A stretch of DNA of 21,714 nt from assembly GCA_001724265.1 (NCBI GenBank), contig MEDY01000275.1:62001-83714 (forward strand), given 5' to 3'. Both the position numbers and the translations under genes were made by a program. The stretch comes from Rhizaria sp. SCN 62-66. Lineage: Eukaryota. This document shows positions 1,922 through 21,713 of this stretch, in pieces (position 1 is the stretch's first letter; every line of letters starts with the position of its first letter). The notes beneath the pieces are model-generated. The model did no database searches. It saw only the letters and a program-made list of their open reading frames with translations, and had not been told where the DNA came from.

Positions 1922-3343
1922 GGGAAGATCCGAGGCTGGAGAGAAAAGCGGGGAACGAAAGGGCGGGGAAACGGCGGCATACAAACGGAAGGTGAGGGGA
2001 GAGTTGACGGCAGCCGAAGACGAGGGACAATTTTGGCGCATATGACGAAGCTCTCAGGAAAGTATAAATCGTGTTCAAATAGTACTGGACAGTAAGAAAC
2101 ATCAGGGTGACGTCATTGTTTCAATATAGGTCTTCTTTGAGCGGCGAAGTCCGCGGAAAAAAGGGGGGCTCTGCGGACGAGGGGGGGGTTGTTCGTGCAC
2201 TTTGTCGGGAGACCGCCCGCCCACTACCGTGGGCGCGCCAAATCAAAGTAGATGTGGGAGAACTCACAGCACAAAAAGACGCCGGAAAAAAACTCTATAG
2301 CTGATGATGGCATTCTCTATGGCACCTGAGAGATCAAAACAACTTGCTCCCCAGATGGCTGAGAGCGCCTCTCGAGCCGGTGGTGCGGCTGGCAGCTCGC
2401 TACTTACACGAGAAAGGCATTTTTTTGTGTTTGTATACTTGCAGTCATGCACGCACTATTGGTTTTAAATAGAGCGCACTAACTACTTATGTATATAACC
2501 AGTCATATGGTTAAACCGTGTGGCTTAATGGAATATCAAGTCTGTTTAAGCATCCATCTCGGTCGAACGTCACTTGCTGATGCTGGTTGTCCACAAATGC
2601 AAAATTACCCCACGTATGTTCCGTGCAAAAAATGGTTTTCGAGGTTTCTATAATTTGTTTTCATATATGAGCGATGTTGAAATCCTTTTGAGTCACCGTG
2701 GTGGCTCATATGTCCCATCTTGGCCTGACTTGCAAGGTTCTTCATGTCTCTTCCTGATCGGATTTCCGGTATAGTACACCAGACGCATAACCAAACGGCA
2801 CGGGTGCGCTATAGTATCACATTTACGCTATTTCAAACGAATGGTGCTTGCTATGAGTTCTTAGCGTTTACTTTTTCAACGCTCATCAGCCCTTAAAGTG
2901 CAATCCTAACTCGAAATGACCGTGAGCACATGCGAAGGAGAGAGATATCTCATCTAAGCAGCCAGACTGACTAATACTACGCTAACAGCTGTGTATGCCA
3001 CAATGAAATCGCTCTAATCGTTGGAGGATTACGTGCGACTCGTTGTCTAACCTCTCATGTATCTGGATTTGACTAATTTGAAGGGTGACAGGCGCTGCTG
3101 TTGTCAAAATAGTCCAGCAAGCGTTCGTGGTGGACATCAATCTCAATGTTAAGCTCGCTGATGTCACCGCGAATCGACATTTGGACTATGGGAGTGGCGA
3201 TGTCTTGCTGGTAAAACCTACCTGCGCTAATAATATCACCTCAATCCCTGTCTATCCTGCCCATTTCTTCCCCCTTCAGACACACCACTTCTCACCAGCG
3301 ACGCGATCACCACTCTCAACGAGCCGCCTGTGCCTGCGTCACA

Positions 3344-5521
3344 ATGGGCCAGAGCTTATCCTTTGATGTTGAGGATCACCGCGGTGAGTACTATATTGCG
3401 AGCTCTCTCAAGTCCGCCCTCATTGCGAAGATTGCGGACACACGCTGCTCCTTCGCTCCCAAGGTTCGTCCCTTGCTCCCCTCGTTATCCATCACCTCTC
3501 TGCCCACAATTACTTCAATCAACTCCGCGCTCACTGCTCTTTTGTCCTAACACTGCCTCGCCTTGTTTCTACTTTAAACCGCGTCGATCCACTCTGATAC
3601 CACTGACGCGCGCTGCTCCAGGGCTCCCGCGACCGCGCGCGCAGCCTGATCACGACGCTGCCGCAGCTCTACGCCGACGTGGCCTACCTCAACACGCACC
3701 TCGCGCCGCTCTTCACGGACCCGCATCACTCCCACGAGCCTGTCTCCGCGCAGAACCCCGTGCCCGCGCGCCGCTGGTGGTTTGAGGTTGCGTGCCGCGT
3801 CCCCGCGCGCGCCGCGCTGGCCATGGCCCGCGCCGAGGTGACCGACGAGGGCGAATGTTGGCATCGCTGCAACACGTTCGTCGTCACGGCCGCGCTCATC
3901 CCCGTCGCCGCCGCCGCCTCCGCCGCTACTGCCGCGGCCGCCGTCGCCGCAGCGTCCGCGGCTGCGGTCGCCAACGGCAGCGGCAGCGGCGTCCGTCCGG
4001 CCTACTCGAACAGCAGCTCTCTCGCATCTCCCAACAACAACAACGGTGGCGGCAGCGACGCGGCGGTGTATGCGCTGCGGCCCAGCGAGTTCTACGCCGT
4101 GTACCTCTTTATGCTGGACCAGTCCGTTGTCGTTGCCAGCCCAATGCACACGCCCGTCGTCGGCGCCACCGCCGCGCACGCGCCCGTGCCGCCCGAGTCC
4201 GCACACGCGACTGCTCATGAGTCTGCTCATGCCGCTGCTCATGTCGCTGCTGACGCGACTGCTGCGAGTGCGGGCGCTGGGAAGTACGTCGCCAGCTCTG
4301 CGCCCGCGGCTGCCGGCGCCGCGGCTGCGGAGGCTGACCAGGATGCGATCGCCATCATTCCCAAGTCAAGCGCTCTGGAAGAAGTGGAGGAGGAGGAGGA
4401 TGGTGCCAAGGCTAACGGCAAGGGCCAGAGCAACAACAAGAACAGCGGCAAGGACAAGGGCAATGGCAAAGGTAAGGGCAAGGGTGGCAAGGGCGGCAAC
4501 ACCAACAGTCAGGGCAATACGGACAGCGACGAAGGCAAGGACAAGAAGACTGAGTCTGCCGCCTCCGCCACGACGGCCACTGACGCAACGCCGGCGCAGC
4601 CTGAGCCCGCCGCCGAGCCCGCCGTTGCGTCGCCGTCGGCGTCGTCGGTCGTGCTGACGGCCGAGGAGGAGGAGGCCGCCGAGCTGTGCGCGATCTGCTT
4701 TAACAACAAGGTGTCGACCGTGCTGCCATGCTCGCACGCCTTCTGCAACGACTGCCTCGACGGATGGTACGAAACAGACTCAAACAACCCAAAGACACCC
4801 GTGTATCAATGAATATAACGCTTTGGCATATTATGTTGTTTTGATGCATCTGAAAACTCTCTCACATTTTTAATCTTTTCCGAAATTGTCTCCTTTTTGC
4901 GCTGTGTCACACAGGACCAAGAGCAACATGAACTCATCTAACAGCAACCGCAGCGCCCCCCTTGGCAGCGACCCCGGCGGCGCCGGCGACAGCGAGGCCG
5001 CGGAGGAGACCTGCTGCCCGATGTGCCGGGACCCCACGGCTGGCTCAGCGCACCGCTACGACCTCGTCGACAAGGACGACGGCCGACAGGTACGCGGGGA
5101 AACCAACCATGTTAAACGATCATATTTACGTGATTTGACGCTTTTATATTGAATTGTGAAACTGTTTTTACTTGTGTATATGTATCACACTTGCCAACGC
5201 TATTATGTCCATTTGTTTTCCTTTTTTATATTCCTGTTTTAGTTCGTGATTGACAACCTCATCGCCCGCCTCCGCGCCTTCATCAAGAAACGCCCGACCG
5301 TCGCCCTGCGTCCCGAGCCTGCGCCCGCGCCGAAGCCTGCGTCCATGCCCGCGCCCGCTGCTGCTGCGGCTGCTGCTGCGTCTGTCCCCGCGGCTGTGCC
5401 TGAGGCCGCCTCTCCGCCAGCGAAGCCCGACTCAGAGTCGGCGGTCGCTGCTGAGGATGTCAGTTTTTCCATGGATAACGACAAAAGCAGTGGGAGGGCT
5501 CCTGAGAGCGACACCAAGTGA
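3344..5521 (+). CDS. RNF141-like C3HC4 RING-finger E3 ubiquitin ligase, 4 exons (3344-3463, 3622-4766, 4915-5089, 5243-5521), 572 aa
   Basis: Three GT-AG introns join the ORFs in frame. N-terminus MGQSLS fits Gly2/Ser6 myristoylation, and RNF141 begins MGQ. Segments LYADVAYLN...WWFEVA...LRPSEFYAVY resemble the RNF141 N-domain as I recall it. RING is CAIC-x11-CSHAFCNDC-x37-CPMC. Ends in TGA. Confidence 0.8.
3464..3621 (+). other. Spliceosomal intron 1 of RING gene (158 nt, phase 0)
   Basis: Donor AAG|GTTCGT, branch-like CACTGAC at 3601-3607, acceptor CTCCAG|GGC. Splicing keeps the frame. Confidence 0.65.
4767..4914 (+). other. Spliceosomal intron 2 of RING gene (148 nt, phase 2)
   Basis: TG|GTACGA...ACACAG|G rebuilds the conserved RING Trp codon and joins the two halves of the RING. 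AT-rich. Confidence 0.85.
5090..5242 (+). other. Spliceosomal intron 3 of RING gene (153 nt, phase 0)
   Basis: CAG|GTACGC...polypyrimidine tract...TTTTAG|TTC. AT-rich and frame-preserving. Confidence 0.85.
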
Positions 5522-6046: not shown

Positions 6047-8398
6047 TCAGTTGTCCCACTCGGAGCCGTCAAAGCCGATGAAACCGGTGGCGAGGAAGAG
6101 CGGGAAGAAGTGCTTCTCGGGCAGCTGGTTGCACCAGTTCCATGCCGACGTGAGGCGGCCATCGATGCAGCTGCCGGCCTCGAAGTAGTTGTCGCCGCCC
6201 GATCCGTCAAATGCGAACTTAAAGAAGTCCGAGAGGATGACCCGGCGCGCTTGCTTGCGCGAGCCGTAAGCGGTGTGGATGAGCACCGGAAGGCGCTTGT
6301 TGGGGATGCTGTCCTCGTCCAACACGCGGTCCAGCCCCTTGAGGCACAACACCACGGGGGCTAGGATCTTGGCCACCTGCGGAGAAACAAAACAAACAAT
6401 AAAGAACCAACGAAAAGGAGAATTGAAAAAATATATGTGAGTCTGTAGCATAAATGTTTGTTGGCAATTGAGTGTTGAATGTGTCAATGATGTCGGAACG
6501 AAAATGTCTAAGAGTCATTTGTTTGCGGTTTTCAAGAGTGCTATAATATAACCATGACGTACCTGGTTGTACTTGTCAATGAAGGCGTATGCGTTGGGCA
6601 CGTTCTTGTCGCCCAGGTGGATAACCGAGGACCCGACCCAGTTGCCGGCCTTGACCTGGGCCGCGTTGACGAGACTGCGCATGGCGCGGTCGGTGCGCGG
6701 CGCCTGCTGCAGCCGGTGCAGGCCCTGGCCCGTCTGCGTCAGCGTGTACGGGTTCGGCGCCGACAGCCCCCCCAGCTCGCCGGTCACGTCCAGCAGGTCC
6801 AGCTCGGCGAGGGACCAGAAGCGGAAGAAGTCGTCGAGCAGGTCGCGCCAGAGGCAGAGCGACTGCAGCACGAAATGGTACTGCGCAGCGTGCGAGTGCG
6901 TCAGGCGCGCGCCGTCGGCGCCCTCGACGATGGCCAGCGATGTCGTCTCGTCGTTCGGGTCTGTCTGCACGGGCGAAAAGAGCGACTTCAGGTAGTCGAT
7001 CAGCGTGTTGCAGTGGTCGCGGCTGTCGTGCAGGAACGAGTGGTTGTCGGTGATCGAGTAGAGCGCCATCGACAGCGTTTCGCGGTCGATCTCGCGCGAC
7101 GTGTACCGGTCCAGCAGCTCCTTCATAGCACTGTCGCGGCACGTCTTGTCCTACTGAATCGCGATGCGGTCGCGCCCGTGGTGCGCGATGATCTGCGTCG
7201 CGACGGCCAGCAGCGGGTCCCTCAGCACGCCCAGCGCCTTGCGCTCCTCCAGCAGCGAGTACACCGTGCGCACAGGGCGGATGCAGGAGAAACCCAGCTG
7301 CTCGCGGACCTCCTCCTGCTGCGTGTCCTGGAGGAAGAACATGAGCTGCGCGTAGCTCAGCCGCATCTTCTCTGGGTTGCGGATCTTGTGGCGCCGTCCC
7401 AGCTCGAAGATGTTCTGGAAAAAGGGCGCGAACACAGTCAGGTCGGCGCCCGCGAGCACCTCGCGGCCCACGCGCGTGTCGCCGCCCGCGACGAGCGCGG
7501 TCAGCACTGACACAACCTCGAGCACGCACGCGCGGGTGCGCGCCGGCTTGCTCTTGAACTCCTTGTCGACGCGGTCGGCGTACGAGGAGGAGCGCAACAC
7601 ACCCTGCAGCAGCCGCAGCAGCTTGCGCTCCTCGTGCGTCAGCCGGAGCGGGATGAACTTGGACCGCTCCAGAAACCACTCCGGCTGCGGCATCTCGCCG
7701 CGCCAGAAGGCCGGGAGCGAGCCCGCGTCGGCGGCGATGCGCTCGGCGTGGCGGAGCGATTCCTTCTCGCTCATGGCGTCCACCGCGGCGGTCGACGCCG
7801 CGTCCTGCGCCGTCGTCAGCGCAGAGATCGCGGCCGCGGAGGCGGAGCTATTCGAGGTCGTCACCGCGCCGCTGCCGTCCGCCGCGTCGGCGTCGGCCTC
7901 GTCCACGGCGGCCGCCGCGCCGGGGGCGGCCGCCGCGCCGCCGAACAGCTTGGCAGGGACGGGCCGGGAGGCCGAGACCGGGAGCGGGCGGTGCAGCGCG
8001 CGACGACCCTTGCGGTGGTTGATCTCAAAGCAAAGCACGCAGAAGGCGTCGCCGCACTCGCCACACAGGGCGTCCGAGGGTGCAGCCTCGCACTCGCAGC
8101 AGACTGCGTGGTCGACGGCGTCGACGGCGCCGACTGAGGCTGCGGCAGCAGGGGCGGCGGCCGAGTCCGTCATGGGCTGCGAGCCCAGTAAGGAGACGCT
8201 ACCGGTCTCAGCGTCCTCGTCGTAGGCGGGCTCGGTGGACTGCAGGATGGCGTCGAGCGTGCCGCCCTGGCTATTGCTGTTCTTGGAGTTCTTGAGCAGG
8301 AACTTGAGATCGAAGTACTGCTGCTTGACGTTCATGTAGTCCGTCGCGCCGAACTGGCTCGGTCCGGAGCCGCCGTAGAAGGAGAATCCCCCAAACAT
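6047..8398 (-). CDS. UPF0652/DUF2009 family protein with N-terminal B-box zinc finger, 2 exons (8398-6563, 6376-6047), 721 aa with in-frame TAG at codon 416
   Basis: Family motifs ERSKFIPLRLTHEERKLLRLL, RRHKIRNPEKMR, GARLTHSH, WVGSSVIHLGDKNVPNA and FDGSGGDNYFEAGSCIDGRLTSAWNWC. ORFs 7151-8398 and 6515-7126 share a frame and are separated only by TAG plus 8 codons. Ends in TGA. A possible acceptor AG at 8409-8410 leaves the true start slightly uncertain. Confidence 0.9.
6377..6562 (-). other. Spliceosomal intron of DUF2009 gene (186 nt, phase 0)
   Basis: On the - strand CAG|GTACGT...TTGTTTCTCCGCAG|GTG, giving FIDKYNQ|VAKIL, which matches the family motif. AT-rich. Confidence 0.9.
7991..8101 (-). 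other. B-box-type zinc finger within DUF2009 gene
   Basis: CCECEAAPSDALCGECGDAFCVLCFEINHRKGRRALH. Confidence 0.85.
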
Positions 8399-9265
8399 CC
8401 GCGGGGGTCTGCAGTAAAGAGCGCAGGCAAGTGGTTAGGAGGAGTTCGGAGGGATGAGCGAAGTGAAGCAAACTTCGGTGGTGCATGAGATTGGTGAGTG
8501 CGCTTAAAGAGACTCTGTAGACAGATAACCGCAGGAGTTTGCGGGTTTATTCACTAGTTTATATAAAAAACCACAATTTAACCCAGATTCAGTTCGGACG
8601 TTTCATATAACGACGAGTGTCTCCCATAATGGCGCGTCTACGAAAGTCAACATCTCGTTCGTCCTCTTTGTACGCCAACCACAAACTGCACAGCTTCACT
8701 GTGATTATACTTTTTTTCACATGTATACACACCAGGATCATTAAAGATCATGCTTATTTCGAGATATAATATCAAAAACATAATTTCCTTGGTTAAAATA
8801 GATAATTTATTTCAGACTCATGTGGTTGTAACATGTCGGGCTTGTCGAGGAACCCAAGTGCGACGCATCAGTAACGAGCAGTCGCATGGAGAGAAACAAA
8901 CAAAGACACACAGACGCAGCCCCTGTAAAGATCAGATACTGGACGTGCTTTGAATAGCAGTAGAAACAATCAGGATAGCTGATATACATAGAAAACAACA
9001 GTGACAAGGCATTGCACAAATTGGCACCAACATGTACACATCAAAGCAGTTTGTTCACATGACAAGAACTACTCCCAACAAAACATTCCAAGACAGAACA
9101 AAGGATATAACAAGGAGAATCAAAGCAAGAAAGGACGACTTCGACGAAAAAGAGGTTTGGATTTTAGATAACAGTGACACTCACGATGGCAAGCACGGGC
9201 AGCGACTTACCTCGTCACAGTGCACACACATGCCTTCGTTCGTGACGGACGACGACGTGCGCCGT

Positions 9266-12200
9266 TCAGTCCCACAGGAACGAGATGATGACGCGCATGC
9301 CGTTGCTCCAGTAATTCCTCTCGCTGACGGACCGCGCCTGCAGGTCCAGCGTACGCTCGGCCGTGATGATTGAGAAGCACAGGTCTTCATCGACGTCCTT
9401 GGCGCTCTTCTGCATCACCTTGGTCTTCTTGCCGTCGACGACACGCACGAGCTGCTTCGTGAACACCATCTTGCCCGTACCCCAGTCAATCGACACGGTC
9501 CGGTTGTCCTGCATGATGCGCATCACGACCATACGTTCGTGCGGTTTGCCCAGGCGCCCGTGCTTGAGGAACATCTCGCCCACGAGGGCCGCGCGTACGA
9601 ACTCAGTCGCAATCTCCCAGTTGTTCCGCTGCTCCTCCTCCTCGGCCGTCAGAATCTCGCCATCCTCCTCATGCTCCTCCTCGGCCTCGCGCTCCGCCGC
9701 GGCGGCCGCGGCGGCGGCGGCGGCGGCGGCCGCGGAGGGCGCGGGCAAGTTCTCATACTCGAGCTCACGATGCCCGGCGTCGTGGTGCCCCTCGTCCTCA
9801 TCCTCGTAGTCGCCCTCGCCGTCCTCGTCCTCGTAGTAGCCTTCGTCGTCGGCTTCGTCCTCACCCAGCGCGGTCCCGTGCCGGGGCCCGCGCTGCGGCG
9901 GCTGTTGCTTGCCGCCGCGCAGCTCGTAGTCGATGGGGGCGGCCGCGTCGGCCTCGGTCCGCGGGTCGCCCAGCCGTGCTAGGTGCGCGCGCTTCTCCTC
10001 GCGCTCCGCCGCAGTCTCGGGCGCTACACCGCCGTTGACGCCGTTGACGCCGCCGCGTCTGCCACGGTTGGCGTTGGCGTTGTGCAGCATGTCGTCTTCG
10101 TCCACCTCGGGCTGGTGGGCGCCGGCGCGCGACAGCGAGTGCTCGCGGTCACCGTCCTCGCCCAGCGCCTCGGCGATCGCGCTCGCCGCCGCGGCCGCCG
10201 CGGTCATCAGCGCGTAGTCCTGTCCGCGCGCGGGGGGGCGATCGCCCGCGCTGGGGCTGCGCGGCGCCGGCTGCTGCTGAGTCTGTTGCTGCTGCTGTTG
10301 TTGCTGGTGCTGGGTGGTTTCGAGCACGGGGATGTTGTCGAAGCTCTCGTCGAAGCTCGAGTCGTGACCGCCCACGGCGGCGCCCGCTCTCGCTGCGGCG
10401 GCGGCGGCGGCGGCTGTGACCGGAGAGCGCGCCTGCGGCCGCGGGCCGAGCGCCTGGTGCTGCTGCGGCAGCGGAGGCGACTCGCTGCGCCGGGCGCCGT
10501 CGCCGCCGCCCGCCGCGGGCTTGTCGCCGTGGCCGTGGCCGTGGTGCTGCTGCTGCTGGGGCGTCTGGGGCTGCTTCTTGGGCTCCATCGTCATGTTCAT
10601 GTGAGGTCGGCGCGGGCTCGCGATAGTCACCGCGGGCGCGAGCTTGAAGTGCGCGCCCGCGCCGCCCGCGCCGTCGGCGTCGTCGTCCTCGCAGTCGCCG
10701 CCGTCCTCCTCGTCGTCCGAGAGGCCCTGGATGAGCGCGTCGACCTCGCCCAGGATGTCCATGTGCCGTTGTGCAGCCGCGGACTTGACGCCCCCCCCGG
10801 CGTGCGCCGCGCCGCTCGCGTGGCGCGCCTCGGCGGCGTCCTGCATCGCGTGGAGGTCGCGCTCCTGGCGCAGCCCGCGCAGCCGCGCGTCCGCTTCAGG
10901 ATCCGCAGCGGTGGTTGCACCAGGGGTAGGCGCAGGCGCAGCAGCGGCAGGAGCGGCGGCAGCGGCTGCAGGAGCGTTGGCGTGGGAGCGCGGGGCCAGC
11001 GCGGCGGCGGCGGCGGCGAGCGCAGCGCCAGTGGCCGCCGCGGCCGCCGCGGCCTCCGAGGTCGCGACTGCGGCGGGCACCGCGGGAAAGACAGGCGCTG
11101 GCGGGCGATATACCGAGAAGGCGACGGTGCCCGCGGGGACGGTGGCGACGAGCTTGGGTAGCAGCGCCGTCAGCGCGGGCTCGCGCGGGAACGCGGCAGC
11201 CGCGGCGGCCGTCAGCGCGGGGTGCGGCACGTTGCGCACGGCGCGGAGCTGGTCCGCAGCGGCCTGCTGCACCGCGGCGACCGCGGCGGTCAGCCACCCC
11301 GCCTCAGGCAGGAACGGCGCCGCGGCGGCCAGCGCGGCGGCGACCGCGGCCAGCGCGGGCAGCACGTGCTGCGCGGGCGCGCTCGCCGCCGCCGCCGTGG
11401 GCTTGCCCGTGATGGTCACGGCGAAGGGCGCCGCGGGCACCAGCGCCAGCGCGGTGAGTGTGGCCGCGACGAGCGTCTGAATGTAGGCCGCCTCCAGGTG
11501 GTCGAGCGGCTCAAAGCCCAGCAGCGGGCGCTGCGACCACGACGCCGGCGAGCGGGCCGCGGCGTAGGCGCGCGCGGACTCGGCGAGGGCGCCGAAGACG
11601 GCGGCGGCGGAGGACGTCGACAGCAGATGACATTGCGCGGCGCCGGCCGCGGCGGCGAGAACGGCCGCCTCGGACCCCGCGGCGGCAACCGGGATGCCCA
11701 CGGTCGCCGTAACCACGTCGCCCCCCGCGCCCGCGGCGGCGTCCCCAGCGGCGGGGAGCAGCGTGCTGCGGGCCGTGGCGAGCACGCGCGCGACGGCCGT
11801 GGTGGGGTCAAGCGGCCACCCCAACGCCGCGGCCTGCGCGGGCGCCGCGGCGTGCGCAGTGGCCGTGGCGGCGGCGCCGCGCAGCGCGGCGGCGGCCTGC
11901 AGCAGCGGCAGCCAGAGCGGCGCCTTGGCGGGCCCAAGCGCGGCGGCGGTGCACGCGGGCAGGCTCTCGGCCAGCGCGGCGGCGTCGTTGAGCGCCAGGT
12001 CGCACAGCGCGAGGCCGACATGCGCGTCCGCCGAGACGGCCAGCGCCACGGGCGCCGCCGCGTCCGCCGCCGCCGCGCCCGCCGAGGCCGAGCTGGCCTT
12101 GGCGGCAACGTACTTGACGGCCTTGTCGAAAACCTTGCGCGCCTTGTCGTGCAGGCGCAGATGGTGTTGCGCCCAGCCGATGGCCACCACGGCCGAGATG

Positions 12201-13531
12201 TCGTTCTTGACGGCCGCGAGCGTCTGTCCGACCAGCTTCAGCACGCCGGCGCCGGGCACCGCTGCGGGAGCTGCTGAGTCAGCAGCGGCCGCGGCCGCGG
12301 GCGGGAGGACTGTGAGCACGGTGGCCGTGGTGGCGAGCCGGGCGGCCCGGACCGTGAGTGCGGCCGACGCGTTCTCGGTGTCCGCGACGGCCTCGATCAC
12401 GCCGCGGAACGCGCCCTGCACCGCGGTGACATACGCCTCCGCCGCGCCGCTGCTGCCGGCGCCGCTGGCGTGGCTGGGGCGGGCGAGCGCGTCGAGGAGC
12501 AGGATGGAGCGCGAGGAGACGAGCGAAAGCGCAGCGGCCTCGCGCCCCGGACCCGGCGTGGCGGCGTCGGCCTGCGCGAGCGCGCGCGCCTTGTCCCACT
12601 GCGAGAGCCCCGAGGCGAGCAGCACGCGTGCCTTCTCCTCGGCGTGCGGCGTGAAGCCCGGCGCGGCGAGCTGGATGCGCTTGAGGTCCTTGAGCGCGTC
12701 GACCCACCCGCGGTCCACGGCGTGCAGCCGCGCGCGCAGCAGCAGCGCGCCCGCGTCGCGCGCCTTCGCGGACCCGCGCGTAAGCGCCAGCGCCGTCGCC
12801 ACGTGCGCGCGTGCAGACGCCACGTGCGCGGCGGCGGCGGCGGCGGCGGCGGTCGTCGCGGGGGTCGAGGCGGCGCCCGCGGCGGCGGCCGGGTCGGTGA
12901 GCGAGATGGCGGGCGGCAAGAAGGCCAGCGCGGGCAGCGGCAGCGCCTCGCACGCGAGTGCAAGCGCGACGTCGGCGGCGAGCGCGGGCGCGGACGCGTC
13001 GGTGGCAGGCGACTTGGCCGCCACGCGGTCCGCGCACTGCTTGGCCTTGTCGAGCTTGCCCGTGAGCAGGAAATAGCGCGCCACGAGCGCGAGGCCCTGC
13101 AGCGAGGCCGCCTTGAGCTCGCGCTTGAAGGCCTCCTTGTGCGCGGGCGTCGCCGGGAGCGTCTTGTCGCGCGTGGTCGACACGGCGGCCAGCGCGGCGG
13201 CGCGGGCGCTGGGGGCCGCGGGCGCGTCCGCGACCAGGGGCGCGGCCGGGTCGGCCATCGTCCTCAGCAGCTGGCGCGACTGCAGCGCGTCCGGATGCGC
13301 GAGCGCGCGCCAAAACCGCAGCGCATCCGTCTCGGTTGCGGTCAGCGGCGCCGTGGCGCCGTCGGCGGAGGCTGCCACGGAGCCCGCCGCGGCGGCAGCG
13401 AGAGCTGCGTCAGCGACCGAGTAGGCGGCCGCCTTCATGTCGTGTGAGAGCCAGTAGAACGTCTCGACCAGCGCCGGGTGGGTCAGCGTAGGCACCACGA
13501 CGGCGGACGGGTCCACAGCTGACGTGGCCAT
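9266..13531 (-). CDS. TPR protein resembling the N-terminal half of IFT139/TTC21, fused through a disordered acidic/Gln-rich linker to a C-terminal PH domain (1421 aa, no intron needed)
   Basis: Uninterrupted ORF with first ATG at 13531 (MATSAVDPS) and TGA stop. Helical blocks such as ARYFLLTGKLDKAKQCADRV, ALLLRARLH...WVDALKDLKRIQLAAPGFTPHAEEKARVLLA..QWDKA, IGWAQHHLRLHDKARKVFDKAV and AHVGLALCDL follow the order I recall for TTC21B. PH domain at the C-terminus. Confidence 0.75.
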   Translation of the reverse strand: MATSAVDPSAVVVPTLTHPALVETFYWLSHDMKAAAYSVADAALAAAAAGSVAASADGATAPLTATETDALRFWRALAHPDALQSRQLLRTMADPAAPLVADAPAAPSARAAALAAVSTTRDKTLPATPAHKEAFKRELKAASLQGLALVARYFLLTGKLDKAKQCADRVAAKSPATDASAPALAADVALALACEALPLPALAFLPPAISLTDPAAAAGAASTPATTAAAAAAAAHVASARAHVATALALTRGSAKARDAGALLLRARLHAVDRGWVDALKDLKRIQLAAPGFTPHAEEKARVLLASGLSQWDKARALAQADAATPGPGREAAALSLVSSRSILLLDALARPSHASGAGSSGAAEAYVTAVQGAFRGVIEAVADTENASAALTVRAARLATTATVLTVLPPAAAAAADSAAPAAVPGAGVLKLVGQTLAAVKNDISAVVAIGWAQHHLRLHDKARKVFDKAVKYVAAKASSASAGAAAADAAAPVALAVSADAHVGLALCDLALNDAAALAESLPACTAAALGPAKAPLWLPLLQAAAALRGAAATATAHAAAPAQAAALGWPLDPTTAVARVLATARSTLLPAAGDAAAGAGGDVVTATVGIPVAAAGSEAAVLAAAAGAAQCHLLSTSSAAAVFGALAESARAYAAARSPASWSQRPLLGFEPLDHLEAAYIQTLVAATLTALALVPAAPFAVTITGKPTAAAASAPAQHVLPALAAVAAALAAAAPFLPEAGWLTAAVAAVQQAAADQLRAVRNVPHPALTAAAAAAFPREPALTALLPKLVATVPAGTVAFSVYRPPAPVFPAVPAAVATSEAAAAAAATGAALAAAAAALAPRSHANAPAAAAAAPAAAAPAPTPGATTAADPEADARLRGLRQERDLHAMQDAAEARHASGAAHAGGGVKSAAAQRHMDILGEVDALIQGLSDDEEDGGDCEDDDADGAGGAGAHFKLAPAVTIASPRRPHMNMTMEPKKQPQTPQQQQHHGHGHGDKPAAGGGDGARRSESPPLPQQHQALGPRPQARSPVTAAAAAAAARAGAAVGGHDSSFDESFDNIPVLETTQHQQQQQQQQTQQQPAPRSPSAGDRPPARGQDYALMTAAAAAASAIAEALGEDGDREHSLSRAGAHQPEVDEDDMLHNANANRGRRGGVNGVNGGVAPETAAEREEKRAHLARLGDPRTEADAAAPIDYELRGGKQQPPQRGPRHGTALGEDEADDEGYYEDEDGEGDYEDEDEGHHDAGHRELEYENLPAPSAAAAAAAAAAAAAEREAEEEHEEDGEILTAEEEEQRNNWEIATEFVRAALVGEMFLKHGRLGKPHERMVVMRIMQDNRTVSIDWGTGKMVFTKQLVRVVDGKKTKVMQKSAKDVDEDLCFSIITAERTLDLQARSVSERNYWSNGMRVIISFLWD
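9275..9600 (-). other. PH domain (Mcp5/PLC-like subtype)
   Basis: GEMFLKHGRLGKPHERMV...IDWG...VVDGKKTKVM...CFSIITAERTLDLQARSVSERNYWSNGMRVII, with the invariant C-terminal helix Trp and a basic beta1-beta2 loop. Confidence 0.9.
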
Positions 13532-14259
13532 CGCTGTGGGAAAGCGCGGTATGGGCAGGGAGTGGACGGAACAAAGTTGGACAGAGAGCAAGGCGTGACA
13601 GTGAGAGGAGGAGTTGAAGAGGCAGATATGACCAGGTTTGGCGAGCTCTGTAGGAACATTATTAAAAATTTGGATATTAATTTATCACGGTCCAACCGAA
13701 GAAATGCACTGATTCACAACTTCATGAGCAGGTGACGTGGAATGACACGCTTAAAATCGTCGATTGATGCCTAGGCGCCCAGTCGCTGGCGCAGTGGCCT
13801 TGCGGCCAGCTAATATCACACCCGAGAAGGTGATCTTTAACATGCAGCAGCGCACTTCTTTGACCGTCTTTATCTTAGTAAGCCACGAATTTCATTATGC
13901 TCGTTTGTACTATAACTGCCATTTTACTCCACACTTTATCGTATATTGTTGTATTGCTCTGTCCGTGTTCTTGCAAAGCTGGATTTCAACGGGCATGCTA
14001 CGTATGGTCTGCCCCAGACCTAGACCCAGAACTCACACTCAACACTTATTTTTACTATTTTTGCACGGACCCTAATCTAGAGCACTTACTTACAAAACAT
14101 CTGAACTGCACTATTACACTTGAATCGCCTCGAAACCCCTCCAGGTCCATCGCCGCAGTGCCCGTGCGACCCCTTTTCTGGCGCGTCAGTCGCCCCTCGC
14201 TCCCGCCCTCACTCTCCCTCCGCTGTGACTGCCCTTCTCTGCCTGCTGTTGCCTGATTC

Positions 14260-15864
14260 ATGTCACAGCCGAACAACGCGCGCTCCGGTGCCCCGCGGCC
14301 GGCGCTCGAGGATGACGACGACGACGTGCCGTCTTTCATCGCCATCTTGTCGGAGCAGGGCACTCTGCCACCCCGCCCTGCGCCCGCCCCCGCGCCCACC
14401 GCGGCGTCGGTCTACGCACCCGCGACTGGCGCCGTGGAGGGCGCGTTCACGGCGCCCGCGGTGACGCGCGCGTTCTCGGCGTTGTCCGACGCAGACTACA
14501 CGTCCTCACCCACCTACGGCAACAAAAACGGTCACCTGCACGCCTACGGCAGCCCTGGGGGTAGAAACGCTGCCGGCGCTGCTGCCGGCGGTGGCGCGAG
14601 TCTGTCCCCGCCCCGCCCCGCCCCCGGCCGCGCCCCGCGGTCCCCGCGCGGGCTCACGCCGCGCTCGCCGCCGAGCGACCGTGAGCAGCTGGGTGACCGT
14701 GAGCAGTTGGGTGGGGTGGTCGGCAGCGGCGCCGCGGTCAACCCCGACGACGGCGCCAGCGCGGCGTACCCCAACGCGGCGGGCAACATCAACGTGAACC
14801 TCTTCGGCGGCGGCAAGCCCGCCCGCGCCCGGAGGGACGATGACGACGACGGCGTGCCCGCGTTCATCCGCATCATCTCCGACGATATCCCCGCTGCGGC
14901 GGCTGCAAAAACGACTATGAAGGCTGCGGTTGACGATATCCCCGACTCAAGCTCGCTCGATGGCTCTGGCAACGGCATCCCGACCCTCCCCGGCCTCACT
15001 GCCACTGCCGCTGCTTCCGCAACTGCGACGATCGTGGCCGCGACCGCCGCTGTGCCGCCGCTGCTGATCTACGCGCCCGCGCCGGCGCCGCTGCCGAGCG
15101 ACTACGCCGCGCCGCTGGTGTCCTACCACACCTCCGCTCCGCGCCGCCGTGGCAGGCGTTCGGACCCGGCCTCGGCGTCCTCTGCGGCCTCCCTCAACGG
15201 TGACGACTTTGGCTCCGGGTCTAGCGCGGCCGCGGCCGTCGCCGAACACATTCCACCGGCGCAGCTGCTGCTGCCCGGCGCGCTGCCCGCGCAGCCACGC
15301 GTTGCGCTCGCCTTCCCACCCTACACCGCGCCCGCGGTCTCCGTTGGCGGCGGCAGCGGCGGCGGCAACGGCAACGCGCAGTCCGCCGCGTCGGCCGCGT
15401 CGGCCGCCGCCGCCGCCGAGGCTGCCGCGGAGGCCGCCGAGCGCGCGGAGCCGATCGTGGTGTACTCGAGCGCGGGGCTGCGCGGCGATGAGGTCCGCGG
15501 GCGCCGCCTGCGTGTGTGCGCGCTGTCCATCTTCCTCCCGCTCCACATCCTCCTCGCGCTCATCGTCTTCTTCTTCCTGCCCTACTCCATGGACGCCGGC
15601 GGCGACGCGCGCTACGACGACCTGGCGCTCGCGGCGTGCGGCATCGGCGTCGCGGCCGCCGTCGCCGTCATGTGGCTACAGTCGCCGCTGCTGCTGGGCG
15701 TCTTCGTCGTGGCATACGTGCTCGACGCCCTCATCAACCTCGTCCGCTTTGTCAATATCGTCCAGTTCCTCGGTGTGCTCGTGCAGCTACTTATTTGCTA
15801 TCTAATTGCGGGGTATGGGGCAACGTTGCAGCCGTCTTGGGTCAAGCTGTAGCCCGCTGCATGA
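14260..15864 (+). CDS. Membrane protein with long disordered N-terminus and about 4 C-terminal hydrophobic helices (534 aa if TAG 15850-15852 is read, otherwise 530 aa)
   Basis: ATG at 14260 after a pyrimidine-rich leader. Hydrophobic segments ALSIFLPLHILLALIVFFFLP, LALAACGIGVAAAVAVMWL, LLLGVFVVAYVLDALINLV and IVQFLGVLVQLLICYLIAG. End reads CTG TAG CCC GCT GCA TGA. Confidence 0.8.
14677..14712 (+). repeat. 18-bp tandem duplication encoding DREQLG x2
   Basis: gaccgtgagcagctgggt followed by gaccgtgagcagttgggt (one synonymous mismatch). Confidence 0.9.
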
Positions 15865-16737
15865 GCTAACTGTGTTACTGTACTAGTTAATGCCGGATAG
15901 CAAGCACGGCGCGCACGACTTTTGACACCTTTGTTGCCTTTAAGTTTACGTAGTTTTAAAAAAGTTTTTCAGTTTCTCTATGTTGTTTTGTTAAGTACCT
16001 TTTTAGATTGTCTTTCTAGCCATTATTCGCCTGACTATCTCTTTCCACAGCAGTGCGCATCATTATTGTGCACTTTGTGTCAACCTTGTTTCTTCTTTCC
16101 TTAAGTGACTTGCGCACAGTGCTGCAGGCCAGCTTGATGTTTGACGCCTTGAGGAGTCTGCATACGTGCTACGCACCCCGTCGGGTTGCGTGGGTTTATC
16201 ATTTGTTACCTAGTTTCGTTCTTGCAGCAGTGCAGCGAGGATGGTCATCTCAAGTGCACTAACTCAAGTTACTACCTATAGACCAGGATAATACACAGTT
16301 ATAACTTCACTATACACACTTTGAGAGTAAATACACCATAAGAAGTACTATTGTGCAATATTGGTGCGATCGCGGTAATTTGACGCCCGGTATAGTGCAA
16401 ATATGCGGTGCGGTGAGGCGCGACTGTGAGCAGGCGCAGTGCCCACCCATCATCATCCGCGTTGAGAGGACTGTTGTTCAACACGGTCCTTTGACGTACA
16501 TGTAACGGAAAAGTCAAATGTATAACGCTGGCCAGTGAGTTTACTTATAATTGTCTTTATATTTTAAATTAAACTTTCCTCACACTTCTTATTACCATTG
16601 TGCACCCACGGTTTCAGGTCTCTTTGTCTGCTTGTGCGACCGTCCGTGTATCTCCTTGCGCAGAGCCAGTTTCACGCCACCACAGCTTTCCTGCTGCTGG
16701 TTTCTTTCACCCTCTCGGAACCCCATCTGCTAACATT

Positions 16738-19700
16738 ATGTCTGCGTTGGGATTTGCTTCAAGGTCGAGTAGCTCTGCTCGCGCCCGCCCACCAGGTGCG
16801 TCTACCTCGCCAGTTTCGCCTGCGAGTCATACGGTGGCCCGCGCTGCGGCTGACTCTTTCTTCGTGTCGTGCCTTGCTGACACGCTATCTGCCGCTGCTG
16901 AGTACATCATTGACAGCCGCAAGCGTTATACGCCCCTTGAAGCCATCAATGCTGCCCTGACCTCGCTCCCGGCCTCCGCAGCAGCCCCTGCACAAGTCAC
17001 GCAATCTGCCCCCGCCGTCTCTGCCGCCCTCGTCTCTGCTCCTGCTTCTGTCCCGGCTCCTGCGCATGTCGCCGCCTCGGTGCCGGTTTCTATTGTTACT
17101 GCTTCTTCTGTCCCAACCACTGCCTCCGCCTCTGGGCTGTCGTCCGCGGCCACGGGCTCCGCCGCGGTCGCCGCGCTGGCCGCGCTGCCGTGGGACGCGC
17201 TACTGGACCCAGCGACCTACGGCGGCGCGCGCGGCGGAGGCGGGCTCGACCCCGAGACCGCCGCGCTGCTCACTCTGCTGCGTGACGAGGCGCAGGCCGC
17301 CAACGCATCTCCTGATGCGAAGACTGCGCAGGCTGGCACGAGCGCGGGCACAAGCGGCAACAAGTGGAGCAGCAAGAAACATGATGACGTGCCTGCGTTG
17401 CTTGCTGCGGCGCCTGGGAGCGACGTTCTGCCCGCGCCCGCGTTTGTCCCTGCCAAACCCACTTTGCTGGCGTCCTACGACGCTTCTCTCCTTGCCCTCA
17501 TCAACAACAACGACGGCAACGCCAACGTTCGTAGCAGCAACAACAGCAGCACCGCTGCGTCGGTCGCCGCTTCTGCGGCTCTGCCGCTGCCGCTGCCGCC
17601 GCTGCCCCCCGCGGCGGGCACGGCGGCCGCCACGCTGGCGCGCGCAGCGCTGACCGCGGCGGACTCGGCCCTGGCGGCCGCAGGCGTGCAGCACGCCACC
17701 GACGCGGCGCTTCTGGCCGAGGCGGCACGCCGCGCGGACCGGCTTAACGCGCAGGTCGCCGCGCTCGCCGACGCGCAGGCCGTGTGGGACGACCGCGAGG
17801 GACTGCGCGGCGTCGAACGTGGCGCCGCGGCGGAGAGCTGGGAGGCCGCACTCGCCGCCGCCACCGAGGCCGGGGCGCGGCTAGCTCGGTCGGAGGCGCG
17901 GGAACGCGAGCGGCTTGCGCGCGCGCAGGCGCGGGACCAGCTGGGCGGCGAGCGCGCGCGGTGGCGCCGCGAGCGCAGGCGCGTGCGCGCGCTGGTGAAG
18001 CGGGCGAACGAGGCGCGCGTGCTGCTCGTGGCGGGCGGCGACGCGGCCGAGGTGCTGGCCGCGCTCGATGGCGTCGCCGACGACGCGGCCGCGACCGAGG
18101 CCGAGGACGCCGAGCGCAGCAACGGCTATGAGGCCAACGAGCACGATGATGCTGAGGAGGAGGACGACGGTGACGCCGACGGCGACGACAGCGGCGACGA
18201 CAGCACGCTCGAGGAGACGGCGGCCGCCGTGCCCGGGGTGCCTGCGCGCGCGCCGCGCGTGGCTCGGCTGCAGGCACGCATCCGCGTCCTGCTCTGCGAG
18301 ATCGCGCGCCTGAACCACGAGGACGTGGCTCTGCCGTACAGCGAGTACGACGCGCTGCTTGCCTCGCTCACGCCGGCGGGCTCGACGCAGGCACTCGCCG
18401 CCGCCGCGGCCGCCGCGGGCGCTGCGGGCGCGGGTAGCAACGGCTCCGCGGACGACGCCGCGAACGAGACGCTGACCCGGGCCGCGAACGGCGAAGGGTA
18501 CTACGGTGTGCTGCCGTTTGCGGTGCTCGAGCTGGCAGAGGAGGAGGCCGCGCTGCTCACGACGGCGACCACAGCTGCGACGCTTAGCAGCGGCAACGAC
18601 GCCGACGAGGAGGCCGCGCAGCTCCTCTCTGCCGGTGGCCTCTCCGAGGAAGTTCTCGCCGTGTTTGCCCACCTTAACGCGCAGCGCGCTGCTGTCGCCG
18701 CGGTGCTCGATGCCGCCGACGCTGCACCGGCCACGTTTCCCGCGGCGCACGGCGGCGCCGCGGCGCTCCCGGCACTGCCCAAGGTCACCCCGCCACCCCG
18801 CATCGGTCTGCGCGCGCAGAACACGCTGCTGCGGCTCGCCCTGCGCGCCGTGCAGCGCCGTGGCGGAGACCTGGCCGCCGTCGCCGCGACCACCGCCGCA
18901 GTCGCCGGCCGCAGCGGGCGGTTCGCGGCCTCCGAAGCTGAACTGCGCCGACGGCTGCACAAGAGCCAGGCCGCGCTTGCGCGGTCCGTGTCGCGCGAGG
19001 CGATCGCGGCCGCCGCGGCCGAGGCCGGCGCGATTGCGGCCGCGCGCGAGCCGCGCCTGCTGGCGTCGCTGCGCACGTGGCGGGCCCGTGCGCGCGTGAT
19101 GCACGGCGATCGCGCGCGGCTGTGGGCAGTGGTGGACTCGGTGCTGGGCGCGCAGGGCGCCGTGTCGACCGCGAGTCAGCCCGCGCTGACCACCGCCGCG
19201 GGCCTGCGCAAAGCCGTGCAGGGCGGCTGGGACGCGCTCGCGAGCCTGGGCGTCGCGCTGGGCACCGCGGACGCGGCGTTCCCCGGCGTGCGCGACCCCG
19301 TGTCCGCGGCCAAGTTCGCCGCCGGCACGGTGCGGCCCATCACGGGCGCCTGGGGCGGCGGCGTGGGTGCCAAGCGCAGGCCCGTCCACATTGCGGAGAG
19401 CGCAATTCCGGGTACGCACATGGCCATGACAGCTGCTGATGATCCGGGCGAGTATGCTGCATACGGTGATGAGTATGAGGGCGACTACGATCTCGACGCT
19501 GAGGCCGCTGCGGACGCCGTTGCTGAGGCGGAGTACGAGGCGTATCAGGCCGATCTCAATGCCACCGTGGCCAGCAAGCCCGTTGCCAAGCCTGTCCCTG
19601 TTGCGCTCGCTGCTGGCGGACCGGCGACTGCCGCTGTTGCCGTCGACAGCACCACGAAGCGCACTCCCAAAGCGAAGACTCCTCACGGCAAGGTCTCAAA

Positions 19701-21261
19701 GGACGCTGCAGAGGCGGATGGCCTGGACGAGATGGACTCGTACATTGACTCACTGCTCGCTTACAACGTTGACGGTGATGCTGATGAGGAGCACGCTAAC
19801 GCCGACGCAGCACATGATGATGACGGCGGCATTGAGGGCACCGGCGACGGCAGCGAGAGCGACATTGATGCTGGCATTGCGTTCGACGCTTTGTCCCCCA
19901 TCATCACGCGCAACCCGCTGATGCCACGCTCTGCTGTTCGCTCGCCCCACCACAGCACTGATAGCTACCACACCTCTGTCGCGCCTAGGAGCAGTACTAC
20001 TGACGGCGGGTTCAAGCCGCTGACTCCGCGCGAGGCCAATATCATCTTGTTTGGCACTGCGACCCCCGGCGGCTCCCCCAGTCACCGCAAGCAAGATGAG
20101 TCCGAGTCCGCGCCGGCGCCGGCGTCGCTGTCAGCCGCTGACGTCGGTTTCCCCGCTACGTCCGCGCAGCCGCGGTCCACGGCGTCGCTGCTGCGCACGC
20201 ACCCGCGCACCGCGGCCACTGCGCGCAGGGCTGGACAGACTTCGCTCACGATCACCGAGGCGATCATGGCGCAAGATGAGGCCGATGCAGCTGGGTAGTC
20301 ACAACGTGCCACCAGTGGTGTGCGTTCGCGCGGTCGCAACGAAGCTGACTCGCCCCGCGTCACTTCTCGCTCTGCTGCGAGTCAACAGCAACAGCAGCAG
20401 CAGATGCAGTCACCGCAACAGTCGCAGTCTCCGTCGCGCCCGCGCTCGCGCTCTCGCCTGCGCTCCCCGTCCGCCCACTACGACCTCACCAGCGCCGACG
20501 CTGGGGATGGCGACGTGTCGGACGCTTGCACCAACGCGGCAGTAACGGCTGCGGTCGAGTCCACGCTGGTCGTGCACACGATGCTCGCGCCGACGCCGCC
20601 CGGCTCCGCGCGCCGCAGCCTGCGCGACGTCTCTCTCAGCGAGCTCGCCGCCGCGCAGGCCGCCTCGACCCGCTCACACGCGCGGTCGCTGTCGCCATCG
20701 TACTCGCAGCGCGCAGCGCTCAGCGCCGTGGGCGGCGCCGCGGCGGCCCCTGTGCGCCGCGTCTTCGTCGGCCCGCCCGGCGCCGCCACGCTCGTGACTA
20801 TGGACCCCGCGGACAGCCGCAGCATGTCGCCCGCGCGCGGCACACATGGCCGCCCCGGATGGGCCTCGGGGCCGCCCACGCCCGCGGCCGCCGCAGCCGC
20901 TGCAGCCGCCGCGACGGCCACGATGGGCTCCAGCAGCGCGCGCGCACGCAGTCGCAGTAGCAGCCGCGAACGCTCCTACGGCGCGGCTGCGAGCGCCAGA
21001 GTCGGTGGTGGAGTCAACGACACGGGCGAGAAGGGGTATCTGAAGACGACGTCGGCGTTGCGCACGCGTGCTGAGGAGAACGTGGCGCTGATCGAGGATA
21101 TGAAGCGACGCGAGGCGAAGCGTATCACGTCCAGCAGTCGGCGCTCGCAGTCTCCGGCTACTGCTGCTGCTCATGGTCACAGTCAGCAAATGGCCGTGAC
21201 GGCAGCGAGCAACCGTACAGGAACACCTCTCAAGCAGCAGCAACCGATGTATTGGTGGTAA
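16738..21261 (+). CDS. Large Ala-rich hypothetical protein with predicted coiled-coil segments and Ser/Arg/Pro-rich tail (1507 aa with in-frame TAG at 20296-20298)
   Basis: First ATG at 16738 (MSALGFASRS). ORFs 16600-20298 and 20320-21261 are in the same frame, separated by TAG plus 7 sense codons, with no AT-rich spacer. E/R-rich helical stretch at about 17700-18030. Ends in TAA followed by an abrupt drop in GC. Confidence 0.75.
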
Positions 21262-21323
21262 AGATACGCTAAATTTAACAAAATTAACCTAACTACGAAC
21301 GTAACCATTTATTTACCCGTGAT

Positions 21324-21329
21324 AATAAA
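21324..21329 (+). promoter_or_regulatory. Possible polyadenylation signal AATAAA for gene 16738-21261
   Basis: AATAAA about 60 nt after the TAA, in the 263-bp spacer between convergent genes. Could be chance in AT-rich DNA. Confidence 0.3.
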
Positions 21330-21524
21330 CAACTAGCAACACATTCATGCTCGCACAAATCTTGCATACGCGTAATCGGTAGATGAAAGGAGTAGGAATT
21401 TTCTAATTGCAATCAGAATGTATTAGAGAGAAATGTACAAGCACGAACACGCCGCGAGGCGCGTTTGGCGGTGACCGAGGTCAACACCGTACGACTGCAG
21501 GTTTCTAAGAGCAGGTTAGGGCAC

Positions 21525-21713
21525 TTAGAAGCACTTGCGGTGGACGATGGTGGGGCCGGACTCGTCGTACTCCTGGCGGGTGACCCACATGGTCTGGAAG
21601 GTAGAGAGGTAGGCAAGAATGGAGCCACCGATCCAGACGGAGAACTTGCGCTCCGGGGGCGCGATGACCTTGATGTTCATCGACTGGGGAGCAAGGGCGG
21701 TGATCTCCTTGGA
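21525..21713 (-). CDS. ACT: Actin, C-terminal 62 aa (gene enters from the right edge)
   Basis: Manual translation: [62 protein letters not shown] followed by TAA (21527-21525). Confidence 0.97.

Follow-up and report, generated by a model that had tools for sequence, protein, structure and literature searches.

UAG is probably read fully or nearly fully as a sense codon, and UAA and UGA remain stops, in the eukaryote represented by contig MEDY01000275.1, of which a 21,714-nucleotide stretch (the window) was analysed. The window is nuclear DNA in which coding stretches of 70-80% GC are separated by AT-richer spacers. Its gene models comprise 5,396 codons in seven genes and contain three internal TAG codons, no internal TAA or TGA, and no frameshifts. 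The in-frame TAGs lie in a gene encoding a B-box and DUF2009 protein, near the end of a gene for a conserved membrane protein (gene 5), and in a low-complexity orphan gene (gene 6); coordinates are collected in Table 1. UAG is considered to be read through as an amino acid because homologs carry a residue at the DUF2009 and gene 5 TAGs. The same code had been proposed in an earlier, sequence-only reading of this DNA. All coordinates given there for the three TAGs and for the terminal stops were correct, and the absence of frameshifts and of internal TAA or TGA was reproduced, the codon total given above replacing its figure of about 5,460. The proposed code was supported in part, by the homologs at the DUF2009 and gene 5 sites, by the actin TAA and by the DUF2009 TGA; the part of the proposal that concerned gene 6 is only probable.

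Homology and independent assemblies at the in-frame TAGs

In the translated frame, residues 257-627 match Pfam DUF2009 (E 6.7e-162, 540 bits), a span that includes the TAG. Thirty-three database relatives of the DUF2009 protein were found, of which 15 were aligned; none of the aligned sequences had a gap at the TAG. Homology continues past the TAG for approximately 300 codons without a gap, across a clean GT-AG intron (GTACGT...CCGCAG), to the usual C-terminus of the family and a TGA. Between the TAG and the exon 1 border, 196 residues are 77% identical to P0035. The C-terminus, ...GFIGFDGSEWDN-TGA, lines up with the homolog ends, ...GFVGFDGADFDG, and the C-terminal motif of the family is present in the window protein as ...GFDGSEWDN, followed by TGA. 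Codon-usage score and bias in the post-TAG DUF2009 exon were the highest in the window. Judged from these alignments, conservation past the TAG is far beyond chance.

The database open reading frame (ORF) call P0001 (415 residues, on 4 contigs) ends at residue 415, i.e. at the TAG. P0034 (1 contig), which is identical to P0001 at 414/415 positions, likewise ends at residue 415. Neither a full-length DUF2009 allele of more than 65% identity nor an allele with a sense codon at the TAG was present among the 33 database matches. An intron holding the TAG was considered and rejected, as the homologs show no gap there and its removal would delete residues that they keep.

Relatives of gene 5 were collected with an exhaustive HMMER search (E<=1e-3; n=21). 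The closest homolog, P0041, is encoded on a 1,617-bp JGI contig and ends ...AQPAWTELRPAT. The gene 5 tail, ...LQPSWVKL[TAG]PAA[TGA], was compared with the P0041 tail, ...WTELRPAT[end]; the TAG stands opposite Arg. The BLASTP alignment of the two proteins passes through the TAG and extends to residue 533/534 of gene 5 and 368/369 of P0041. Because the tail aligns with P0041 through the TAG, with Arg at the TAG position, the TGA at the end of the gene 5 frame is taken to be the true stop. By comparison of the two sequences, such a tail match is hard to obtain by chance. The sequence-only reading had placed this TAG correctly and had treated it as neutral; it is in fact a second piece of comparative support.

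In gene 6 the TAG is probably internal to the gene. The frame after the TAG ends in TAA exactly at the boundary between GC-rich and AT-rich sequence, and the other intergenic gaps are all AT-rich and each at least 263 bp long. The post-TAG frame scored best by codon usage among the local frames. The ORF call for this gene, P0039, comprises 1,154 residues and stops at the TAG.

The TAG letters were also present in other assemblies. L001, a JGI metagenome contig and the sole match from the JGI metagenome scan, is identical at 3094/3094 positions and covers the DUF2009 TAG. In run X3 (DNA, from a different study), contig records 3, 6 and 8 cover all three TAGs with 0 differences. The DUF2009 TAG is present in record 3 of X3 and in record 19 of run X5. 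The latter record (6561-7542) is a strain variant with five differences (7163, 7164, 7165, 7169 and 7231), which read as two replacements (Ile to Asp and Gly to Arg) and one synonymous change; the TAG is unaltered. Its alignment stops at 6561, the exon/intron border, where 119 more letters are unaligned, which suggests that record 19 is spliced complementary DNA. A contig assembled from polyadenylated (polyA) RNA in run X7 (record 32, 20162-20517) spans the gene 6 TAG, also with 0 differences. Contigs of a variant strain in run X4 cover TAG 7151, 15850 and 20296; as only part of their differences was listed, they were not counted as confirming. On the evidence of these contigs, the TAGs are not assembly errors and are probably not edited or spliced out. 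Scans of GTDB genomes and IMG/VR returned no relative.

Further features of the variants were recorded. The five differences of the strain variant (runs X4 and X5) are packed into 70 bases immediately 5' of the TAG in the DUF2009 gene, and the rest of the 980-base X5 contig is identical to the window. They include a three-base codon swap, ATC to GAT on the coding strand, and the local density of changes beside the TAG is unusual. The X4 strain carries a 15-base insertion (window 21396-21400) and has indels in intergenic spacers at 2180, 15954, 16447, 16646 and 21398. Among the differences listed, those in its coding regions are substitutions only, a pattern that fits purifying selection acting on the modelled genes.

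Terminators, the possible residue at UAG and alternative explanations

Six genes have a complete 3' end in the window; four end in TGA, two in TAA and none in TAG, in agreement with the earlier statement that no gene here needs TAG as a terminator. UGA is found at the conserved C-termini of the DUF2009 protein (GFDG motif and TGA) and of gene 5 (TGA at the P0041 end). UAA is found at one conserved C-terminus, that of actin, and at the end of gene 6. The actin frame ends HRKCF-TAA, P0123, a metagenome sequence (59/62 identical, 95%), ends at the same residue, and a second in-frame TAA lies two codons past the first. Placement of the organism by actin had been suggested by the sequence-only reading; the search was run (62 residues, 7,995 matches, P0123 being the best) and gave no indication of lineage. 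The C-terminal sequence of this actin is unusual. Actin depth in X5 was very high (bin mean 572), a figure that also sums the actins of other organisms.

As a sense codon, UAG is as rare in the window as TTA, ATA and TGT (3 of approximately 5,390 codons). The bases that follow it at the three sites differ (TAG-G, TAG-C and TAG-T), with no common downstream context. Codons ending in A make up 10-13% of the CAR, AAR and GAR pairs, and 4% of codons in the genome are A-ending. Even with UAA read as sense, the expected number of in-frame TAA codons is below 0.5; their absence therefore carries no information, and the argument previously drawn from it was dropped. With codon counts uninformative, it is the two TAA terminators that support a decoupling of UAG from UAA. 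For UAG to be read, a transfer RNA (tRNA) with anticodon CUA would be used, and eRF1 would have lost or weakened its recognition of UAG.

Several points weigh against reading UAG as sense. The basis is three sites in one 21.7-kb window, and no tRNA was found in that window, nor is eRF1 encoded there. The count of 0/6 TAG terminators is not significant. GC content at third codon positions (GC3) is 0.852, and 757/1,064 single-step nonsense paths (71%) yield TAG; because of this, the restriction of internal stops to TAG does not discriminate, since ordinary nonsense mutations would leave the same pattern, and it does not support the inference that had been based on it. In the case of gene 6, the only sequence recovered by the homolog search was P0039, which is the ORF call of the window itself. 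Off-frame stop-free runs of at least 320 codons occur at 945/25,328 positions (3.7%, p 0.037). The codon score of the gene 6 tail is 0.067, which is ambiguous; 3/45 non-gene ORFs score higher. An antisense frame has a higher GC3 than the tail, and GC3 does not discriminate. The RNA status of X5 is an automated guess ("probably DNA"), and the listed records do not include the partner piece that a spliced contig would have. The variant evidence comes from contigs, not reads, and contigs drop rare variants. Finally, divergence between the two strains is only about 0.5-1%, and a young nonsense mutation shared by their DUF2009 genes would show no decay yet.

Of the alternatives, the one given most weight, itself unlikely, is that UAG is still a third stop with a leaky or dual meaning, efficiently suppressed in a few genes by a natural suppressor or near-cognate tRNA; the code would then be an ambiguous intermediate or context-dependent one and the reassignment incomplete. 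The extreme rarity of in-frame TAG is what would be expected early in reassignment, and the gene 5 TAG, four codons ahead of a TGA, is arranged like a readthrough extension that a second stop backs up. With a TAG midway through the DUF2009 domain, however, most of the protein made would be cut short unless suppression were almost total; no window gene ends in TAG, and the three sites share no downstream context. Slightly less probable is the standard code combined with three unrelated events: a young nonsense mutation in the DUF2009 gene (a fresh pseudogene or tolerated truncation), a harmless loss of four residues in gene 5, and an end of gene 6 at its TAG, the open frame beyond it being either fortuitous or a separate gene. 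This would accord with the excess of TAG among nonsense paths, with strains too close for decay to show, and with a gene 6 tail that is statistically ambiguous and has no homologs. It would require three separate coincidences in seven genes, and the gene 5 tail agrees with its homolog both in sequence (P-A) and in end position. Codon bias in the DUF2009 exons after the TAG is stronger than anywhere else in the window, the intron there is intact, and no intact DUF2009 paralog or allele was found among the 33 database matches. The gene 6 open frame, moreover, stops exactly at the composition boundary, and the other gaps are AT-rich and at least 263 bp long.

A code in which both UAR codons (UAA and UAG) are reassigned or context-dependent, as in Blastocrithidia and Condylostoma, with UAA terminating only near messenger RNA ends, is very improbable. 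Missing in-frame TAA says little when so few codons end in A, and the counts are compatible with a sense UAA. The actin TAA nevertheless follows the conserved HRKCF and is backed by a second TAA two codons on, the gene 6 TAA lies at the composition boundary, and in-frame TAA occurs 0 times in 5,396 codons. Least probable of all is that the TAGs arose as errors of sequencing or assembly, or that RNA editing or splicing takes them out. Nothing was found in favour of this, the same letters occur in L001, in the X3 contigs, in the X5 variant strain and in the X7 polyA-RNA contig, and there is no alignment gap at the DUF2009 TAG.

With UAG taken as sense and UAA and UGA as stops, the residue inserted was considered from the two informative sites, those in DUF2009 and gene 5. 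In the DUF2009 TAG column, the 33 homologs have R 15, A 7, K 6, E 1, Q 1, F 1, H 1 and T 1; P0009 and P0035 in this count are members of one 90% cluster. BLOSUM62 scores over the two sites ranked R > K > Q > E, with Leu, Tyr and Trp near the bottom, and Ala was second when only the four closest relatives were used. The two sites thus appear to favour a basic or polar residue (Ala also being possible) and to speak against Leu, Tyr and Trp; two sites cannot decide the matter. Arg is the most frequent residue in homologs at both (15/33 in DUF2009; the sole close homolog, P0041, in gene 5). That UAG stands for Arg or Lys, a basic residue, in a eukaryote group that may be related to stramenopiles and has no known nuclear code variant, is a long shot. 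UAG is not known to be Arg or Lys in any nuclear code. Gln had been put forward earlier as the simplest guess, a choice not borne out by homologs that hold mainly R, A and K at the DUF2009 site and R at the gene 5 site. For UAG to be read as Gln, a single anticodon change is enough. Gln is plausible on prior grounds, and the data hold no specific support for it. Precedents for UAG as Gln exist (PMC5304391, in the sections drawn on here).

Gene models and source of the window

Table 1. Genes, introns and in-frame TAG codons of the window (positions 1 to 21,714).
Feature	Coordinates	Strand	Remarks
Gene 1	2041-2	-	Partial; stop outside window
Gene 2, RING-finger gene	3823-5521	+	Two GT-AG introns; TGA 5519-5521
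Gene 3, B-box and DUF2009 gene	8398-6047	-	Exon 1 8398-6563, exon 2 6376-6047, TGA 6047-6049
In-frame TAG, codon 416 of DUF2009 gene	7151-7153	-	Context att cag TAG gac aag
Gene 4, TPR/TTC21-like and PH-like gene	13531-9266	-	1,421 aa; TGA 9266-9268; internal stops 0
Gene 5, membrane protein of conserved family	14260-15864	+	TGA 15862-15864
In-frame TAG, four codons before gene 5 TGA	15850-15852	+	Then CCC GCT GCA TGA
Gene 6, Ala/Ser-rich low-complexity orphan	16738-21261	+	1,507 codons if TAG read; TAA 21259-21261
In-frame TAG in gene 6	20296-20298	+	Then 320 stop-free codons to TAA 21259-21261
Actin, 3' end only	21713-21525	-	TAA 21527-21525
GT-AG introns (gene 2)	4767-4914, 5090-5242	+	Gene models
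GT-AG intron (DUF2009 gene)	6377-6562	-	Gene models

The window contains three GT-AG introns, spread over two genes. All three are AT-rich, 148-186 bases long and start with GTACG, and the exons that flank them have 70-80% GC. This sharp contrast in composition is a good marker of exon and gene borders in this genome. No RNA genes were found in the window (ARAGORN, 0 tRNA; Rfam, 0). In the Atlas search gene 4 matched only generic TPR/TTC21 clusters, below 0.9. The window sequence occurs in public runs of metagenomes from bioreactors, wastewater, activated sludge and microbial fuel cells (12 rows across 6 studies, one of them possibly the source).

Comparison with known nuclear codes

A quick single-gene tree of DUF2009 grouped the window with metagenome sequences, weakly beside Phytophthora (Shimodaira-Hasegawa-like approximate likelihood ratio test 83; a hint only). 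The literature on wastewater protists with a reassigned stop and eukaryotic code surveys (supplements excluded) were searched and no description of such an organism was found, which does not prove that none exists. The window organism would join the known rare UAG-only nuclear reassignments, in an unplaced lineage. If the reading of UAG as sense is true, this would be an independent UAG-only case in a GC-rich, intron-poor wastewater eukaryote, and the extreme rarity of UAG could mean that capture of this stop codon is seen at an early stage. The case would also test whether high GC, with few UAA and few A-ending codons, favours the uncoupling of UAG from UAA. Gene callers cut the proteins of this organism at TAG (P0001, P0039); public annotations of its metagenome contigs would be wrong and the proteins truncated.

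The known systems are compared here from sections of two papers. According to those of PMC5304391, no nuclear code that separates UAG from UAA was known before 2017, and in those of PMC11687900 such decoupled codes are still reported from only a handful of lineages. In Iotanema spirale (Fornicata), UAG is Gln and UAA and UGA are stops (PMC5304391). As in the window, in-frame UAG occurs inside conserved genes and both UAA and UGA are kept as terminators. Gln was obtained there from many genes with a likelihood test, whereas three sites are available here and the homologs have R, A or K, not Q. The window organism, a GC-rich wastewater eukaryote, has no shown relation to fornicates such as I. 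spirale. In the rhizarian exLh (Sainouroidea), UAG is Leu and UAA and UGA are stops, as seen from 384 in-frame UAGs, spread over 71 genes and located where Leu is conserved (PMC5304391). The change is likewise from stop to sense for UAG only, and in exLh UAG is rarer in highly expressed genes. In contrast, the window has 3 UAG in approximately 5,390 codons, and Leu is one of the lowest-scoring candidates over its two informative sites.

Further UAG-only codes are those of Scotinosphaera (Ser), Protocruzia tuzeti (Gln) and phyllopharyngean ciliates (Leu, Gln) (PMC11687900). In these also, UAG and UAA are decoupled in the nuclear genome. They are green algae and AT-rich ciliates, whereas the window DUF2009 sequence groups with metagenome sequences and, weakly, beside Phytophthora. 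Codes in which UAR is Gln comprise ciliate code 6 and those of Amoeboaphelidium protococcarum, ulvophytes, Hexamita and Streblomastix (PMC5304391, PMC11687900). These share with the window the reading of UAG as sense, but in them UAA is also sense and UGA is the sole stop, whereas two of the six complete genes here, including actin, end in TAA.

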